64,000 bases of DNA from Escherichia phage vB_EcoM_Shinka. This document shows positions 15,793-22,986 of the stretch, piece by piece; within the stretch, counting starts at the first letter, position 1, and each line of letters begins with the position of its first letter. The stretch lies in the sequence record MZ502379.1; one strand, given 5' to 3'. The position numbers and the translations under genes were made by a program. The notes beneath the pieces are model-generated. The model saw only the letters and a program-made list of their open reading frames with translations, was not told where the DNA came from and did not search any database.

Positions 15793-16757
15793 TGTATTCT
15801 TTAGAGGAATTTAATAATCAAGCAATAAACGCAGATTTCCAACGTAATAATATGTTTAGCTGCGTTTTTGCAACAACTCCATCAACTAAAAGCTCTTCGT
15901 TGATAAGTTCAATTAGCAACTTTTCTTATAATAACTTGGGCCTAAATTCAGATTGGTTAGGATTAACTCAAGGTGATATTAATCAGGGAATTACTACGCT
16001 AATTACAGCTGGCACACAAAAACTGATAAGAAAATCAGGAGTCAGTAAATATCTTATTGGTGCCATGAGTCAACGTACAGTTCAAAGTTTATTAGGCTCA
16101 TTTACAGTTGGTACATATTTAATTGACTTCTTTAACATGGCATATAACTCATCTGGATTGATGATATACTCTGTAAAAATGCCAGAGAATAGATTATCCT
16201 ATGAAACTGACTGGAACTATAATTCTCCTAATATTCGTATAACTGGGAGAGAATTAGACCCTTTGGTTATTTCATTCAGAATGGATTCAGAAGCTTGTAA
16301 CTATCGTGCAATGCAAGACTGGGTTAACGCTGTTCAAGACCCAGTAACTGGACTGCGTGCTTTGCCACAAGATGTCGAGGCAGACATTCAGGTTAATCTT
16401 CATGCTCGTAATGGATTACCTCATACTGCTGTGATGTTCACCGGATGCATTCCGGTGTCAGTGAGCGCTCCTGAGTTATCATACGATGGAGATAACCAAA
16501 TAACTACATTTGATGTTACTTTTGCGTATAGAGTCATGCAGGCTGGAGCGGTTGATAGACAAGCTGCGCTTGAGTGGCTTGAATCTGCTACTATAAATGG
16601 CATTCAAAGCGTTCTCGGAAATAGCGGAGGTGTTACTGGACTATCTAATTCGCTTTCACGACTTAGTAGATTAGGAGGAACTGCAGGAAGCATTTCAAAC
16701 ATTAATACTATGACAGGAATTGTCAATTCGCAAAGTAAAATATTAGGAGCAATATAA
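15792..16757 (+). CDS. 54: baseplate tail tube initiator gp54
   Basis: 321-aa ORF, start overlaps the gene 48 stop. Confidence 0.93.
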   Translation: MYSLEEFNNQAINADFQRNNMFSCVFATTPSTKSSSLISSISNFSYNNLGLNSDWLGLTQGDINQGITTLITAGTQKLIRKSGVSKYLIGAMSQRTVQSLLGSFTVGTYLIDFFNMAYNSSGLMIYSVKMPENRLSYETDWNYNSPNIRITGRELDPLVISFRMDSEACNYRAMQDWVNAVQDPVTGLRALPQDVEADIQVNLHARNGLPHTAVMFTGCIPVSVSAPELSYDGDNQITTFDVTFAYRVMQAGAVDRQAALEWLESATINGIQSVLGNSGGVTGLSNSLSRLSRLGGTAGSISNINTMTGIVNSQSKILGAI

Positions 16758-16761
16758 CAAT

Positions 16762-16790
16762 GGGGACCGAAAGGTCCCCATATTTTTATT
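16762..16790 (+). terminator. intrinsic terminator after gene 54
   Basis: GGGGACC-GAAA-GGTCCCC hairpin followed by a T-rich tract. Confidence 0.65.
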
Positions 16791-17076
16791 TACGGAATGA
16801 AATAAAAGCAGCAACTGAAGCAACTAAACTGTCTTCAATATAAACTTCAATTTTTACCGGAGCTTCTGACTCAAATTTACCTGTTACTACACCTTGGAAA
16901 ATGCTTTCAGTCTGTTCTGGCTTTGAAAAATTTTCAGAAGGAAAAATTCCGAACTTTTTATCTGTTCCAAAAATTTTGATAAATTCGTCGTAAACCGCTT
17001 CATTAAAAGCGTTATCAGCAGGAATAACGCCTTCAACTACAAGTTCTTGACCTAAAAAGCGTAAAGAAGATTTCAT
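16786..17076 (-). CDS. hypothetical protein (alt.-3 position)
   Basis: 96-aa ORF with its own early-type promoter and Shine-Dalgarno. Confidence 0.7.
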   Translation of the reverse strand: MKSSLRFLGQELVVEGVIPADNAFNEAVYDEFIKIFGTDKKFGIFPSENFSKPEQTESIFQGVVTGKFESEAPVKIEVYIEDSLVASVAAFISFRK

Positions 17077-17083
17077 TTTGTGT

Positions 17084-17137
17084 TCCTCATGTTATGTCAG
17101 TAAGACTACTATAACACAACACGAGGGACTTGTAAAC
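17084..17137. repeat. 54-bp sequence identical to 33023-33076 (early promoter cassette including the Shine-Dalgarno region)
   Basis: Exact 54/54 match read from the sequence. Confidence 0.85.
17108..17137 (-). promoter_or_regulatory. early-type promoter (GTTTAC -35, extended -10 TGTTATAGT)
   Basis: Minus-strand GTTTACAAGTCCCTCGTGTTGTGTTATAGTAG upstream of the alt.-3-position ORF. Confidence 0.55.
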
Positions 17138-19194
17138 TACATTTTGAACTTTTTAGACATTCCGTTGATGTTAACCAAAGAAGCTAAGATTTGAGAAACT
17201 TCATTTTCCTCTTCTTTTGATTCTTCTACAAGGAATTGATTAAATCCAGCCATTGGACGAACTTCACCAGTTTCCATTAGATGGTCTCCATCATATACTG
17301 ATTCTTCTAATTGTTCAGAAGGAGGAACGATTGTACCTTCGATTAGATACTTGTTATAAGCAGTTTCTTTCATAAAGTACGTACTTACTTTATTAATCTT
17401 CAGTAAAATTCCACGCGGTAGAATAACTTCAGCTTCTGATGGAAATCCTGATAAATGACCTGGAACGATAACTTTGATTCGCTCAGCTCCTTTAATTACC
17501 ATACCCACACTAGTTTCAGCATCTTCATTAGCATATGTAGAATGACTACCCATATGCATCAAATCTTCTGCATCAACGGAACCTTCTCCTTCACCAGAAA
17601 ATACTGCTCCGGAATCATCTAGAGCCATATAGTTTTTACCATGCTCACCGAAGATATTTGGTTTAAGCGATGTGGATACGAAGTTCTTGAAATAGAACAT
17701 TTTGTTTTCAATGTTATGACGCAAAGTTTTAAATGTAACTTCTTGTCCACGGTAAAGTGTAGTTCCTGGAGGAAGAACTGAACCTTTAGCGAATGCAGAA
17801 TCCAACGTCTCGATGTGCTTAATAGCTCGTTCCATATATTCTTCACGGGTAGAATCTGGTTTACCCAAAAGGAACGAGTTCATTTCAACATATGAATCTG
17901 CACAATAATCTTCAATTACATCAGATTCAGCCTGAGTCAGTCCTTTTGGAGCTACTTCGGTGCTTGCGTATTCATATGCCTGGGCAGCAGATTCATTAAT
18001 CAATTTATAAATGCCATTCATGACAAATTGAATAATAGCTGTCTTTTCATCTGGTGTGGTTTTAGAACCTTTAACTAAATCATTAATAATTTTCTTAATA
18101 ACATCAAAGCTATTAGAAATATTAATGTCAGCAAGATCGCTTAAAATTTTATCAGTTTTATAATCAAAGAATTCTTTATTCTTTAAATATTCTTGAGAAC
18201 CTTGATATGTTATATCGCTCTGCAACTTGATAGATGGATCACGTAAACGTGCATGGGCCAATGCAATATGATTTCGGAAGCTTTCTAGTTCATAATCGTT
18301 AGATTTAAAACGAGAAGCACTTCTCATACCACCGATAGCTCCTTTGCTGAAGTTTGAACCAATCTGAATAACGCCAGAGTTCATTGGTCCTTCTGCTTTA
18401 TATACCGGAACTTTAGATTCAAACTCTTGATATTTCTTAGCAGCGAAGCTATCACCCTGAAGTGAAGCATCAACAGTAGAATATTGAGCTTGTGCTGCTA
18501 ATCGACGACTAATTTTAGTTTTCTGAATAACAGCTTGGTCCGTGCGCTTATCATTTTCTAAAGCAATAGAAGCAGCAACAGCGACAGCTTTAGGAACAGC
18601 ATTACCTGTTTTAACATCTACATAAACATCACCGACCTTTGATTCAACTTTTGTGAATAACTCAGTTGAAATAGGAGGTACACCTGGAATGTCTTCTAAA
18701 TTGGCATTTTTACGGTAAACCATAATATATGCGTACTTTTTATCATAGTCCCAGATTTCCTTTAAAAGAACATATCGACCTGCTCCTTTAGTACGTACTA
18801 AACGGTCAGCAATAACTTGCATTTGACGAGCTGCGCCATTTGTTTTACTCTTTAGTACGCGGAATAGGCATGCGTCGATTTTATACTGCTTCATTGTTTG
18901 AAGAGCAGTATCAAAAACAGCATTAATGACGCCAATTGGATTTCCACCCAAGTTTCTAAGCTTAACCAGCGATAATTTCTCGTTGACACCTATCATTACG
19001 ATATGCATCATTTTATCGCCTGGCTTAACGTTTTTATTTGTATCACCACCAGAGGTGTATGTACAAAATCTAAATCCAGGAAGCACGCTTTCTTCGCCGG
19101 CTTGGATAGCAAAAATTTGTGGTATTTTATGCTTAGGATTTAAGTTAACAACCGGCGCCGAAGCGCCGTCAAATAATTCTGTAATAAGTTCCAT
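17137..19194 (-). CDS. ADP-ribosyltransferase Alt paralog (second copy)
   Basis: 685-aa ORF; N-terminal ~200 aa similar to Alt (MELITELFD..., CTYTSGGDTN, KMMHIV); motifs YRGQ, FVSTSL, EAEVILPRG. Confidence 0.85.
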   Translation of the reverse strand: MELITELFDGASAPVVNLNPKHKIPQIFAIQAGEESVLPGFRFCTYTSGGDTNKNVKPGDKMMHIVMIGVNEKLSLVKLRNLGGNPIGVINAVFDTALQTMKQYKIDACLFRVLKSKTNGAARQMQVIADRLVRTKGAGRYVLLKEIWDYDKKYAYIMVYRKNANLEDIPGVPPISTELFTKVESKVGDVYVDVKTGNAVPKAVAVAASIALENDKRTDQAVIQKTKISRRLAAQAQYSTVDASLQGDSFAAKKYQEFESKVPVYKAEGPMNSGVIQIGSNFSKGAIGGMRSASRFKSNDYELESFRNHIALAHARLRDPSIKLQSDITYQGSQEYLKNKEFFDYKTDKILSDLADINISNSFDVIKKIINDLVKGSKTTPDEKTAIIQFVMNGIYKLINESAAQAYEYASTEVAPKGLTQAESDVIEDYCADSYVEMNSFLLGKPDSTREEYMERAIKHIETLDSAFAKGSVLPPGTTLYRGQEVTFKTLRHNIENKMFYFKNFVSTSLKPNIFGEHGKNYMALDDSGAVFSGEGEGSVDAEDLMHMGSHSTYANEDAETSVGMVIKGAERIKVIVPGHLSGFPSEAEVILPRGILLKINKVSTYFMKETAYNKYLIEGTIVPPSEQLEESVYDGDHLMETGEVRPMAGFNQFLVEESKEEENEVSQILASLVNINGMSKKFKM

Positions 19195-19197
19195 GAT

Positions 19198-21285
19198 TTA
19201 TCCTTGAACGAACTTGTAAGGCATGTTTGTAATATCTATGCAAGACGCAATAATTCCAAGAGATGATTCTGCTTTCTGTTTAACATTTGATGAAACAAAT
19301 GATGCAAAGTCAACTCTGTCTTCTATTTCACCTGTCATTGCAACTACTTCGCCGGTTTCCATTAAACGGTCACCGTCATAAATTACCGATTCGGTGAGTT
19401 CTTCGGTGGTCATAACTTCAGCTTGAATGAGTTTTGTATTGTTAGATGTTGTTCCGTCATTATTAGAAGCATCAGTTATTTTATTAACTTTGACCATCAA
19501 TCCGCGCGGTAGAATAACTTCAGCTTCTGTTGCTATTCCGAGACTTCCTGGATATACAACATTAACTTTATGTGCGCCGTCAATTGCCCATCCTATTTGA
19601 ACTTTAACGTATTCAGGATTTTCTTTATACGCTCTTATTTCGTTTGGATTAATAGTTATTCCTTCTTCATTTTTATCAACTGTTAATTCATTGCGAGCTT
19701 CTGGTTCTAAAAGACCAATACCAGCATGTGTAATTCCAAAACGTCCAAAAATGATAGGAGTTAAAGAAGTAGATACAAAATTTCTGAAATAGAACACTTT
19801 ATTTTTAACTAGCGCTTCATATATAGGAGCAGTCATACTTTGAGCACGATAAACTGTAATGCCTTCCGGTATACGGTCACCATTTTCAAAAGCTGAATCT
19901 AAATTATTTATAGCAGATTCAATTTCTTTTTCACTCATTGCATCATATCGTTCTGGATTGTAACGACCTAAAAGAAGATTATTAATGTCTGTATATCCTG
20001 AGCCACAATATTCTCTAATGCCGCGCTTTTGTGATGGAGTATATTTAGAACCATCACGGGCAATAGTAATATCAATCATTGGACCAGCACCAATTCCAGA
20101 AAAACTATAAATCATTCGTTTGAGGAATTTAGTTTTTGCTGCATTCCAGGCATTTTTAGTTATTTCTCCCCAGACTTCATCTGGCTGCCCTTTACGAGTT
20201 TTATTATGTTTATCAAGCCAATTATCTTTATATTCTTCAAAGAATTTATTAATAGCTGCTGCGTATTTCTCTAAACATTTTATTGAAGTAGTTGGTTCAT
20301 TTTTTATCGCGTTAAAAATTACATCTTTAATTTTTTCTGAAACTTCATCAACCTCACTTTTTGAAAAGAATTTATAGTCATAGTGAAGTTCATTCGCAGT
20401 TCCTTCGGCAATAATTTTTGCTGCCTTAATTTTAGAAGCTAATGAATTAATTCCAAGCTTCATTTCTTCTGCTTCGGGAATTAAAGGAGCGGTAGCAGGT
20501 TTATTGAAATTAGCTGCGGTAGATTCATACTTATGGAATAATTCACTTTCAAATCTAGAAGATTCTAATGATTGACTTTGTGCAATTGCTCTACGGGAAA
20601 TTTTAACTTTAACGATTACAGCTTGGTCAGAACGTTTATCATTTTCTTGCGCAATAGATGCAGCAATTGCCTCATTTTTAGTTACTTGAGCTCCAGTATC
20701 TTTATTGATATAAACATCACCGACCTTCGATTCAACTTTAGTAAAGAGCTCGGTACTAATTTCCGGAACTCCTGGAATGTCTTCTAGTGATACATTTTTG
20801 CGATGTATAAGAATATATGCATACTTTTTATCGTAATCCCAGAGTTCCTTAAGAAGGACGTATCTGCCACCTGAACGACTACGGATAAGTCTATCAGCAA
20901 TAACTTGAATTTGTCGAGCTTGGCCAGCAGTTTTAGACTTAAGAATACGAAGCATACAAGCATCAATTTTATATTGACGCATAGTTTGCATTGCAACAGT
21001 AAAAACTGAATTGATATAATTAATTGGGCTTGGACCAAGACCTTTTAATTTAGCAATTGAACCTTTAGCAGTTAATGTAAAAGGAACAATATGCATCATT
21101 TTATCGCCCATTTTTAAATCGCGATTAGTATCACCTCCAGATGTATAGGTACATAAACGAAAGCCTGGTTGTTCAATTGCGTCATCAACATGAACTGAAA
21201 AAATTTGTGGTATTTTCTTCTTTGGATTTAAGTTTGTAATCGGAAGAGTAGTATCTTCGTCAAATAATTCTGTAATAAGTTCCAT
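19198..21285 (-). CDS. alt: ADP-ribosyltransferase Alt
   Basis: 695-aa ORF from the second ATG (Shine-Dalgarno GAGAGG spacing); motifs YRAQ, FVSTSL, EAEVILPRG; N-terminus matches T4 Alt from memory. Confidence 0.9.
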   Translation of the reverse strand: MELITELFDEDTTLPITNLNPKKKIPQIFSVHVDDAIEQPGFRLCTYTSGGDTNRDLKMGDKMMHIVPFTLTAKGSIAKLKGLGPSPINYINSVFTVAMQTMRQYKIDACMLRILKSKTAGQARQIQVIADRLIRSRSGGRYVLLKELWDYDKKYAYILIHRKNVSLEDIPGVPEISTELFTKVESKVGDVYINKDTGAQVTKNEAIAASIAQENDKRSDQAVIVKVKISRRAIAQSQSLESSRFESELFHKYESTAANFNKPATAPLIPEAEEMKLGINSLASKIKAAKIIAEGTANELHYDYKFFSKSEVDEVSEKIKDVIFNAIKNEPTTSIKCLEKYAAAINKFFEEYKDNWLDKHNKTRKGQPDEVWGEITKNAWNAAKTKFLKRMIYSFSGIGAGPMIDITIARDGSKYTPSQKRGIREYCGSGYTDINNLLLGRYNPERYDAMSEKEIESAINNLDSAFENGDRIPEGITVYRAQSMTAPIYEALVKNKVFYFRNFVSTSLTPIIFGRFGITHAGIGLLEPEARNELTVDKNEEGITINPNEIRAYKENPEYVKVQIGWAIDGAHKVNVVYPGSLGIATEAEVILPRGLMVKVNKITDASNNDGTTSNNTKLIQAEVMTTEELTESVIYDGDRLMETGEVVAMTGEIEDRVDFASFVSSNVKQKAESSLGIIASCIDITNMPYKFVQG

Positions 21286-21308
21286 CATAGCCTCTCTAGT
21301 GTTTATTC

Positions 21309-21316
21309 TATTTATA
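21309..21316 (-). promoter_or_regulatory. late promoter (TATAAATA) for alt
   Basis: Minus-strand TATAAATA ~25 nt upstream of the alt Shine-Dalgarno, just after a hairpin. Confidence 0.5.
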
Positions 21317-21337
21317 AAATTAAAGGCCCGAAGGCCT

Positions 21338-21526
21338 TTAATAATCTATTGGTAAGAGAGTACGATATATTTCAAACTTTGGACCTTTTTCATAGGCATC
21401 AAATGTTTCTGTAAATTTATTATAAGCATATGCATCTACAAATTCGAGAATGACTTGTGATACAGAAGTAGAAACATCTCCACCTTCTTTTTGAGCAATG
21501 ACAATTGTTTCTAAGTAAGCTTTCAT
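21338..21526 (-). CDS. hypothetical small protein
   Basis: 62-aa ORF; start overlaps the gene 30 stop (ATGA). Confidence 0.55.
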   Translation of the reverse strand: MKAYLETIVIAQKEGGDVSTSVSQVILEFVDAYAYNKFTETFDAYEKGPKFEIYRTLLPIDY

Positions 21527-22986
21527 AGACCAGTTACCTCATGAAAATCACCAAATACATCCTCGAACGTATTAGCTTTAGTTTTATCTTCACGTAAACG
21601 AATCGCAATCGGAAGAAATAATTTAACGTAATCAGTGCGACCATCAGATTTTAACCAACCGTTGCATTCGCACTCTAGAATTTTTCCAATATAATAATTT
21701 TGATTTTCCATAATGCGAGTACGATCAAGTTCATGCGATTTTACACCGGCTTTATCTTTTAAGCCTGAACCAGCATTTACTTTAATTTTTCCACACTCTG
21801 ATTCAAGAACGAAACCACCTGCTTTAGTAGGGTCTTTACGGTGAGGATAAATTCCTACAATTTTTAAATCAACATCAATTACTTCTTTGAATTTATAGAG
21901 ATTTTTTGAACGAGCATTTTCCCATAATCCATCGATATTTTTGAGAATAATACCTTCAAGACCTTGGTCAATATACTTTTTGTAAATTACCTTAGCTTCA
22001 TCTATGTTATTTACTAATTGGTTTTCAATTAAAATTACTTTATCATAGCCTGATGTCATTTGTTCTAGTTTAGAAAAACGTACATCATATTTTAAACGAA
22101 ATGCTGGAAGACCATATATTTCTACTAATGGAACATAGTCCCAGACCTGAAACTTCATGCATTGTGCTTCTTTTTCAGAAATGGTTCCCTTTAAAGATTT
22201 ATTGGCGATGCCATTAGATGCAGTACGTGATTCAGCTACTTCGGCGAATTCTTTAGCTTTACTAATTTCAGGATAAGCATCAAAAAGAAAATCTAGGCCT
22301 TCTGGTTCCTTTTCAACTTGCTCATGGTATACCAATTCGCCATCAATTAACACACCTTCTGGATGAATCTGGCGGGCTTCAGCGGTCATTTTGATTAACT
22401 CTTCCTTAAGAAGATCTAATCCTAGATATTCATTACCAGCTCGTGATAAAAGACGGACATCATCTAATTCATCACCTCTAACTTCAGCAAAACACCGAGC
22501 TCCATCTGCTTTTAATTGTGCAAAGGCTGGAAATTTGATATTCTTACTAATGCCTTTTTCATCATAAGAACTTGCGAGCATTTGAGGTTGTTCAGGAATT
22601 AAACCTGGCCAAACTTTGTTTGCAATAGATACTGAAGCACCACATTCAAGGTCTCGCATCATCACTCGACGCAAAACTTCAACATCATCTTTTTTACCAT
22701 CGGTGATGTATCCAGTTAATTCCTCAATCGCCGCATTTCCAGTCAATTTCCGAGTAGCTAACGTGAATTCAATGAAGTCAAGCATATCGGTAAGAGTCAA
22801 CATTCCAAAACTCTGGGTAGCAATACCAGGTTTAGGCCATTTCTTGATATAATACTGTAACCCACGAGAATAAGTCAGACGATATACTCGTTTAAGCAAT
22901 TCATTATCTTTATTCTTTTCAAGAATTGCTTGCTTCTGCTTAGTTGAACCAATAGATGCTATTTCGTTCAGAATTTTAAGAATCAT
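21523..22986 (-). CDS. 30: ATP-dependent DNA ligase gp30
   Basis: 487-aa ORF, active-site lysine motif KADGAR; T4 ligase length. Confidence 0.97.
   Translation of the reverse strand: MILKILNEIASIGSTKQKQAILEKNKDNELLKRVYRLTYSRGLQYYIKKWPKPGIATQSFGMLTLTDMLDFIEFTLATRKLTGNAAIEELTGYITDGKKDDVEVLRRVMMRDLECGASVSIANKVWPGLIPEQPQMLASSYDEKGISKNIKFPAFAQLKADGARCFAEVRGDELDDVRLLSRAGNEYLGLDLLKEELIKMTAEARQIHPEGVLIDGELVYHEQVEKEPEGLDFLFDAYPEISKAKEFAEVAESRTASNGIANKSLKGTISEKEAQCMKFQVWDYVPLVEIYGLPAFRLKYDVRFSKLEQMTSGYDKVILIENQLVNNIDEAKVIYKKYIDQGLEGIILKNIDGLWENARSKNLYKFKEVIDVDLKIVGIYPHRKDPTKAGGFVLESECGKIKVNAGSGLKDKAGVKSHELDRTRIMENQNYYIGKILECECNGWLKSDGRTDYVKLFLPIAIRLREDKTKANTFEDVFGDFHEVTGL

Follow-up and report, generated by a model that had tools for sequence, protein, structure and literature searches.

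Two full-length Alt-family ADP-ribosyltransferase genes in tandem at the alt locus of Escherichia phage vB_EcoM_Shinka

The alt locus and its two enzymes

The 64,000-nt stretch of Escherichia phage vB_EcoM_Shinka (MZ502379.1) analysed here (the window, to which all positions refer) includes the gene 48 / 54 / alt / 30 region of a T4-like phage (Tequatrovirus). Transcribed from the minus strand are, in order, gene 30, alt.1, an open reading frame (ORF) of 695 aa, a second ORF of 685 aa and alt.-3. The two ORFs, termed Alt and altB below, were the subject of an original prediction made from the letters of the DNA, and their adjacency on the minus strand with a gap of 3 nt was found again in both the ORF list and the sequence. 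Their products have been deposited as "RNA polymerase-ADP-ribosyltransferase" (QXV73023.1 and QXV73024.1). The features of the two genes are as follows (the arrow marks the cut within motifs of the gp21 protease; ART, ADP-ribosyltransferase).

19198-21285, minus strand: alt, encoding Alt (695 aa; exact match to QXV73023.1)
20572-21285, minus strand: Alt N-domain, residues 1-238
19846-19848, minus strand: Alt R480
19765-19773, minus strand: Alt S505-T-S507
19519-19527, minus strand: Alt E587-A-E589
Minus strand, after E6 and after E632 (LTE, 19390-19398): predicted gp21 cleavage sites of Alt
19195-19197, minus strand: alt/altB spacer of 3 nt (TAA ATC ATG; read from the sequence)
17137-19194, minus strand: altB, second Alt-family ADP-ribosyltransferase (685 aa; exact match to QXV73024.1), the full-length form of T4 alt.-1/alt.-2
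18481-19194, minus strand: altB N-terminal alpha/beta domain, residues 1-238, region of PF26846 (Tevenvirinae_ADPRT)
19177-19179, minus strand: E6 codon of altB, in the gp21 motif MELITE↓LFD (ITE-6)
17959-18480, minus strand: altB centre, residues 239-412, predicted all-helical
17335-17958, minus strand: altB ART catalytic domain, residues 413-620 (Pfam PF03496)
17749-17751, minus strand: altB R482
17668-17676, minus strand: altB S507-T-S509
17428-17436, minus strand: altB E587-A-E589
17140-17334, minus strand: altB C-terminal tail (C-tail), residues 621-685
17302-17304, minus strand: E631 codon of altB, in QLEE↓SVYDGD, aligned with the LTE-619 gp21 site of T4 Alt

Profile matches and alignments confirmed Alt and altB as full-length ADP-ribosyltransferases of the Alt family with intact catalytic residues. 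The Pfam model PF03496 (ADPrib_exo_Tox; cut-off 23.4 bits) was matched by Alt at 129.4 bits (1.4e-37) and by altB at 72.3 bits (4.4e-20), while PHROG 802 ('Alt-like RNA polymerase ADP-ribosyltransferase') covers residues 1-694 of the 695 in Alt (1e-272) and residues 1-685 of the 685 in altB (9e-256). Both PF26846 and PF03496 are precomputed for the 99%-identical cluster representative of altB and for the chimeric relatives described below; PF26846 was seen in such precomputed annotations only, as the N-domain and the centre have no model in the Pfam copy searched. The full R-S-ExE triad claimed for both proteins is present as R (YRAQ / YRGQ), S-T-S (FVSTSL) and E-x-E (EAEVILPRG). R482, S507, S509, E587 and E589 of altB and their equivalents in Alt are invariant across a 19-sequence family alignment, so the 685-aa ORF carries no catalytic substitution. 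The position is likewise that of the family, between gene 30/alt.1 and alt.-3/gene 54 and downstream of a late-promoter motif. T4 ModA and ModB are also phage R-S-E ADP-ribosyltransferases acting on host transcription and translation machinery, yet they are early, unpackaged proteins of ~200 aa, and altB showed no significant similarity to either (BLASTP E = 0.51 and 3.7; HHalign probability 0.25%). Identity between altB and T4 Alt is 41% over the whole protein, 35% for the ART domain and 12% for the centre.

Compared with its counterparts in RB32, T2, T6 and Phaginator, altB has a ratio of nonsynonymous to synonymous divergence (dN/dS; Nei-Gojobori) of 0.04-0.06, which is low in all modules including the centre (0.03-0.08); for alt, the ratio against the same four phages is 0.06-0.08. 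Because a dN/dS of ~0.05 goes together with invariant catalytic residues and retention of both gp21 motifs, these rates indicate that altB is a working gene under strong purifying selection.

Overall, Alt and altB share 41% identity (BLASTP, E = 2e-159). Module boundaries, drawn from a three-way alignment including T4 Alt plus a 13-sequence alignment, are sharp in alignments of Alt, altB and their relatives: the two proteins are ~67-68% identical in the N-domain (residues 1-238), 16-19% in the centre (239-412), which is noise level, 35% in the ART domain (413-620) and ~38-42% in the C-tail. The homology claimed for the N-terminal ~230 aa is thus borne out, at 68% identity over residues 1-238. 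The claim that the central ~250 aa are unrelated holds as to the lack of detectable similarity but not as to length, the divergent segment being ~175-180 aa; profile-profile comparison also found no homology between altB-type and Alt-type centres (HHalign probability 0.5%, E = 0.12).

AlphaFold models of altB and Alt (predicted local distance difference test, pLDDT, 73.5 and 75.6, respectively) agree closely, as compared by secondary-structure strings and a BFVD search. In each, the N-terminus is disordered and precedes an alpha/beta N-domain (~residues 12-225); a linker of low confidence then leads to an all-helical centre of 7-8 helices in the same order, the last of which is long (34-40 residues). 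Two N-terminal ART helices, the beta core and a disordered C-terminal tail come next, the tail of altB including a predicted 54-aa C-propeptide. In addition, the model of an Alt from Shigella phage SP18 that is 32% identical to altB could be superposed on the altB model over its full length (643 columns; template-modelling score (TM-score) 0.66/0.72). Given the shared secondary-structure patterns and this indirect superposition, the centres are probably one helical scaffold of hypervariable sequence, not unrelated inserts. The centres share no sequence similarity, in line with the original prediction, but structure prediction of the central domains, which had been proposed there as a check, gives both as all-helical with the same helix order.

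Searched against the PDB with Foldseek, the altB ART core matched Vis (4xzk, E = 9e-7), C3bot, CDTa, iota Ia, VIP2 and Certhrax, with a target TM-score of 0.58-0.64 for single-domain members of this C3/VIP2-like clade. The C3, VIP2, iota, CDTa and Vis toxins share with altB both the fold of the catalytic domain and its motifs (R, S-T-S and E-x-E). They differ in being only 15-20% identical, in lacking the Tevenvirinae N-domain and the propeptides, and in being delivered via secretion or binary toxin pores rather than from a phage head. A sequence search of altB against solved structures returned only a chance match (E = 0.35), no structure of the Alt family having been solved.

Distribution, loss and age of the pair

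The two-gene pair is already known: hundreds of genomes carry it with annotations that name the right family. At least 80% of positions 16700-21600 is held by 341 phage records, mostly at 95-99% identity (megablast), and the records with the two-gene stretch include T2, T6, RB3, RB27, RB32 and RB33. By tblastn, altB was found in ~400 phage records at no less than 80% identity, and the 90%-identity clusters of QXV73023.1 and QXV73024.1 contain 641 and 772 sequences, respectively. In RB32 (NC_008515) altB is annotated as alt.-2 with the remark "apparent insertion in alt.-2; similar to alt"; T6 carries the same remark, and the gene is also annotated in T2 (examples of full-length alt.-2 are YP_803136, BBC14817 and AXN58232). 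Across RB32, T2, T6 and the ~400 Tequatrovirus records it is the same gene, with 95-100% protein identity, 685 aa, the same position and the 3-nt gap; the copies of RB32, T2, T6 and Phaginator differ from that of the window in nothing material, mostly by synonymous changes. Paralogs of alt have been described in T4, RB49 and 44RR, the last with a full-length duplicate (Nolan et al. 2006, PMC1524935). The suggestion that an intact second paralog newly extends the phage repertoire consequently fails, as the gene has been deposited and named and recurs in ~400 records including T2, T6 and RB32.

That T4 has only one intact Alt plus the small ORFs alt.-1 and alt.-2, as the original prediction said, was confirmed in the T4 record, and T4 has no identical intact paralog at this position. 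According to that record, the two small ORFs "reflect an old duplication of the first part of gene alt". In a DNA alignment from T4 alt.-3 to the end of alt, alt.-1/alt.-2 (ORFs of 61 and 67 aa) equal altB almost base for base, and account for its first 339 nt and last 20 nt. What reduced altB to these remnants was a 1-nt frameshift, T4 lacking one A of an A-run at ~19035, together with a deletion that removed the centre and the ART domain:

17157-18855, minus strand: altB segment deleted in T4, 1,699 bp, flanked by the short repeat CTAAA(G/A)AGT (DNA alignment)

The PHROG families of T4 alt.-1 and alt.-2 fit altB better (2e-40 and 1e-37) than they do Alt (1e-21 and 2e-19). An 81-nt probe of the T4-type deletion junction was fully matched in 90 records. 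Since T4 alt.-1/alt.-2 is a deleted altB and the junction is found in only 90 records, the comparison indicates that the intact pair is the majority and ancestral state and that T4 is a deletion derivative.

T4 also differs in Alt itself. T4 Alt (NP_049811, an NAD+:arginine mono-ADP-ribosyltransferase) occupies the same site, from alt.1/gene 30 to alt.-3/gene 54, and shares with Alt and altB the N-domain, the helical centre, the R-S-ExE ART domain, the C-propeptide and both gp21 motifs. Alt of the window is ~100% identical to it over residues 1-238 and 92% in the C-tail, but only 30% in the centre and 63% in the ART domain. Synonymous divergence (dS) from T4 alt (L002:4455-6503) is 0.10 in the N-domain and 0.15 in the C-tail, as against 1.2 in the centre and 1.4 in the ART domain. 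Alt is thus itself a mosaic relative to T4 Alt, and its body is nearer to the first ART gene of Dhakavirus dhabil (81% in the ART domain) than to T4 Alt.

The pair extends beyond close relatives. A diverged phage contig (L005) keeps both genes (697 and 694 aa) with the 3-nt gap, which recurs in RB32, T2, T6 and Dhakavirus dhabil; the order in the last is alt.1, an ART gene (686 aa), the 3-nt gap, a second ART gene (707 aa) and alt.-3. In a module-by-module identity matrix, Alt and the first Dhakavirus gene share 65% in the centre, 81% in the ART domain and 56% in the C-tail, and altB and the second Dhakavirus gene share 43, 56 and 61%, respectively, as compared with 16, 35 and 38% between paralogs within a genome. 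For the N-domain the order is reversed: paralogs within a genome are closer (67% in Tequatrovirus, 64% in Dhakavirus) than cross-genus orthologs, which reach only 47 and 46%. The second gene of the Dhakavirus/JS10 type (dhabil QHR72602; JS10 Alt, 707 aa) accordingly corresponds to altB as an ortholog of its body, lying in the second slot after the 3-nt gap; the centres are 43-47% identical, the ART domains 55-56% and the C-tails 61-70%, but its N-domain is 45-46% identical to that of altB and 64% to that of its own genomic neighbour. Because the enzyme bodies pair by orthology across genera, the duplication predates the split of Tequatrovirus and Dhakavirus, making this an old paralog pair in which N-domains track the genome and enzyme bodies track orthology.

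In view of this pattern, the N-domain either was homogenised between the copies or is co-adapted to a genome-specific partner. Recent gene conversion was considered as the cause and rejected: between the N-domains of Alt and altB, dS is 1.44 (saturated), only the first 30 codons being lower (proportion of synonymous differences, pS = 0.32). With such a dS, any homogenisation would not be recent; either conversion was old or the similarity reflects shared constraint.

Recombination within the N-domain can be seen directly in ECML-134, Yersinia phage PST and two metagenome contigs, where a single gene joins the N-domain of Alt to the body of altB:

L009:2602-4662 (ECML-134), L010:2602-4662 (Yersinia phage PST), L003:4001-6055 and L004:4001-6061: chimeric genes, each alone between alt.1 and alt.-3

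Crossovers are clean and fall at four different positions (~nt 300, 470, 550 and 660 of the N-domain coding region); on at least four separate occasions, recombination in the N-domain has turned the pair into a single chimeric gene. The phages bearing chimeras have lost the canonical Alt body, the reciprocal of the loss in T4. As the chimeras were first met in short-read Logan contigs, an assembly artefact was considered. It was discarded, since the finished genomes of ECML-134 and PST show the same structure with other crossovers and the paralogs are nowhere identical over more than 27 nt.

Variability of the centre is a trait of the whole Alt family: the centres of 198 members sort into 43 types, similar in length (120-196 aa) and mutually unlinked by BLASTP, and distant relatives mostly align with altB over its N-domain and, separately, over its ART domain. 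The altB centre was found in no foreign protein context among 1.84 billion representatives scanned, all 112 matches being Alt-family proteins or generic ARTs. A few proteins such as P0229, P0246 and P0258 (485-1142 aa) match only the Alt N-domain (~residues 10-167). They may represent other cargo on the same N-terminal module; no Pfam domain was found elsewhere in these three, so their remainder is uninformative on alternative cargo. In the Acinetobacter phages ZZ1 and Henu6, Alt is annotated as 'split' into separate N- and C-terminal genes (BFVD I3WW50, A0A410T5F4 and A0A410T542), which may be another sign of modularity in the family.

Expression, packaging and proposed function

Upstream of the pair lies a sequence of the T4 late-promoter type:

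21309-21316, minus strand: TATAAATA, a late promoter motif of the T4 type, ~20 nt ahead of the alt start, then the Shine-Dalgarno sequence GAGAGG

This motif is kept at the same place in T4, RB32, T2, T6, Phaginator, ECML-134, PST and L005, and would act as a late promoter. A further TATAAATA within alt (19905-19912, minus strand, ~700 nt upstream of altB) was examined as a promoter for altB and rejected as probably coincidental, because it encodes conserved residues, being part of the ESAINNLDSAF motif, and is missing from T4 and L005, although RB32, T2, T6 and Phaginator have it. No terminator was predicted between alt and altB, and the Shine-Dalgarno sequence of altB (AAGGA) sits within the 3' end of alt. 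The two genes are probably co-transcribed as one late mRNA from the upstream TATAAATA, and translation of altB may be coupled to that of alt over the 3-nt gap.

T4 Alt is a component of the prohead core, at ~40 copies per head (PMC9026906), is cut by gp21 after ITE-6 and after LTE-619 (PMC5694885), and is injected with the DNA, whereupon it mono-ADP-ribosylates host arginines in an NAD+-dependent manner, Arg265 of RNA polymerase alpha among others; this activity is so far known from T4 Alt alone (PMC2988021). In T4-like Klebsiella phages, whose Alt homolog is single-copy, this protein is abundant in the virion (PMC13119998). The gp21 motif sought near the N-terminus was found in both proteins of the window (MELITE↓LFD), with an invariant E6, and a C-terminal counterpart reads LTE↓SV in Alt and LEE↓SV in altB, with an invariant E632/E631. 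In the models, order starts a few residues after the N-terminal cut site and ends a few residues before the C-terminal one. Trimmed altB is predicted to begin with LFDGASAPVVNLNPK from L7 and to end in ...PPSEQLEE (E631), giving mature masses of 69.2 kDa for altB (7-631) and 70.1 kDa for Alt (7-632).

We consider it likely that the window holds the ancestral two-gene form of the alt locus, from which two Alt-type enzymes are made, packaged and injected in the manner of T4 Alt. Each protein (~77 kDa) would begin with a short propeptide that ends in ITE-6 and continue with a conserved alpha/beta N-domain of ~230 aa, a helical centre of ~175 aa with highly variable sequence, and a C3/VIP2-like R-S-ExE ART domain with a disordered C-propeptide after the conserved L-x-E. 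If they behave like T4 Alt, both would enter the prohead core through the shared N-terminal region, be trimmed at both ends by gp21, stay in the head and be injected with the DNA, and each would use NAD+ to mono-ADP-ribosylate arginines of host proteins. Their target sets would differ, because the centre and the ART domain differ. Co-transcription, packaging, cleavage, injection, arginine specificity and distinct targets are what we infer from the T4 precedent and the features above.

Several points weigh against this reading. The body of Alt in the window is unlike that of T4 Alt, and packaging, cleavage, injection, activity and targets of altB are extrapolated; the biochemistry of T4 Alt (RNA polymerase alpha Arg265, MazF, the role against Mokosh) would not transfer as such to either protein. 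Searches of the literature found no experiment or proteomic record for altB. The evidence for the promoter is a motif match only, TATAAATA not being enriched in the window (12 found versus 8.7 expected), and the confidence of both AlphaFold models is only moderate. Moreover, 90 records including T4 do without altB, and ECML-134 and PST do without the Alt body, so neither body is essential.

The original prediction saw in the pair a duplicated enzyme with a swapped recognition module. On this model, alt would have been duplicated in place recently and its central module for substrate recognition then exchanged. The tandem genes, the 68%-identical N-domains and the centres without detectable homology would fit, yet we regard the model as very improbable. 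Synonymous divergence of the N-domains is saturated (dS = 1.44), the ART domain and the C-tail have diverged too (35 and 42%) and not the centre alone, and the entire altB body (centre, ART domain and C-tail) is orthologous to the second Dhakavirus ART gene as that of Alt is to the first. Both centres, furthermore, are predicted to be all-helical with the same helix order, and the 112 matching representatives offer no donor of the altB centre outside the Alt family. The swapped-module model should be replaced by one of an old pair with concerted or co-adapted N-domains and orthologous, fast-evolving bodies. Hardly credible, and even less so than the swap, is the view that the altB copy is without function or is decaying into a pseudogene, as happened in T4. 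Its deletion in T4 and 89 other records and the non-essential nature of T4 Alt itself would agree with decay, but the frame is intact in ~400 records, catalytic and protease-site residues are invariant, altB is kept across genera, and ECML-134 and PST have retained its body; the low dN/dS (0.04-0.06, all modules and the centre included) already disfavours this reading.

A somewhat more plausible, though still unlikely, alternative is that altB is active but neither packaged nor injected, acting late in the infected cell or modifying a non-arginine substrate, for example a nucleic acid, or attaching RNA chains as ModB does. In its favour, the literature search found no proteomic evidence for altB in virions, and ADP-ribosyltransferases of this clade do have varied substrates (PMC9503650; PMC10468400). 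It is opposed by what altB has in common with Alt, which extends from the N-domain and the two gp21 motifs to the overall architecture and the late transcription unit, by the natural chimeras, which carry the altB body on an Alt N-domain as the sole Alt-family gene at the locus, and by the lack of similarity to ModA or ModB. Two packaged and injected enzymes are the preferred reading.

A stronger form of that reading, in which altB is a second head-packaged, injected effector with targets unlike those of Alt in a two-slot cassette system of T-even phages, is put forward tentatively, as somewhat short of an even chance. If it is true, the targets of altB would plausibly be host defence or stress systems, and the N-domain (~230 aa) would act as a capsid-delivery module specific to each genome, evolving in concert between paralogs and providing the recombination substrate by which enzyme bodies are exchanged, lost or fused. 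T4 would then lack one slot, and a part of the immediate-early host modification of most T-even phages would never have been studied. Nearly all knowledge of Alt comes from T4, which is the derived state, with altB deleted and an Alt body allele unlike that of Shinka, T2, T6 and RB32. T4 Alt is reported to help in evading Mokosh type I, with another Alt allele being no substitute (2025 preprint, 10.1101/2025.11.20.689424), a result that fits variable bodies with different specificities. Because Alt alleles are reportedly not interchangeable against Mokosh and altB is under purifying selection in ~400 records, altB is a reasonable candidate for a distinct function in host takeover or counter-defence, an experimental lead rather than a discovery; the gene pair itself is ordinary for T-even phages.

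Neighbouring genes and the start of alt

The pair is flanked by the following features.

21523-22986, minus strand: gene 30, DNA ligase (ORF list)
21338-21526, minus strand: alt.1, 62 aa, Pfam PF24647 'Phage_blade' (2e-29)
21322-21339, minus strand: hairpin AAAGGCC-TTCG-GGCCTTT, directly after the alt.1 stop codon and just upstream of the alt promoter motif (read from the sequence)
17108-17136, minus strand: early-type sigma-70 promoter-like site GTTTACA-17-TATAGT, directly after the altB stop codon and putatively serving alt.-3 (consensus match only)
16786-17076, minus strand: alt.-3, 96 aa, DUF5498, downstream neighbour outside the ART pair
16760-16781: bidirectional hairpin terminator between alt.-3 (minus strand) and gp54 (plus strand)

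The hairpin between alt.1 and alt is kept in T4, RB32, T2, T6, ECML-134 and PST. For T4 Alt.-3, C-terminal read-through extensions have been reported to escape the CmdTAC defence system (PMC11618068).

The start of alt contains two consecutive in-frame ATG codons (21283-21288), the first of which would give an ORF of 696 aa (19198-21288). In Phaginator the first of the two is ATA, and the Shine-Dalgarno spacing favours the second; the MELITE start at 21285, as annotated in T4, is likely the true one.

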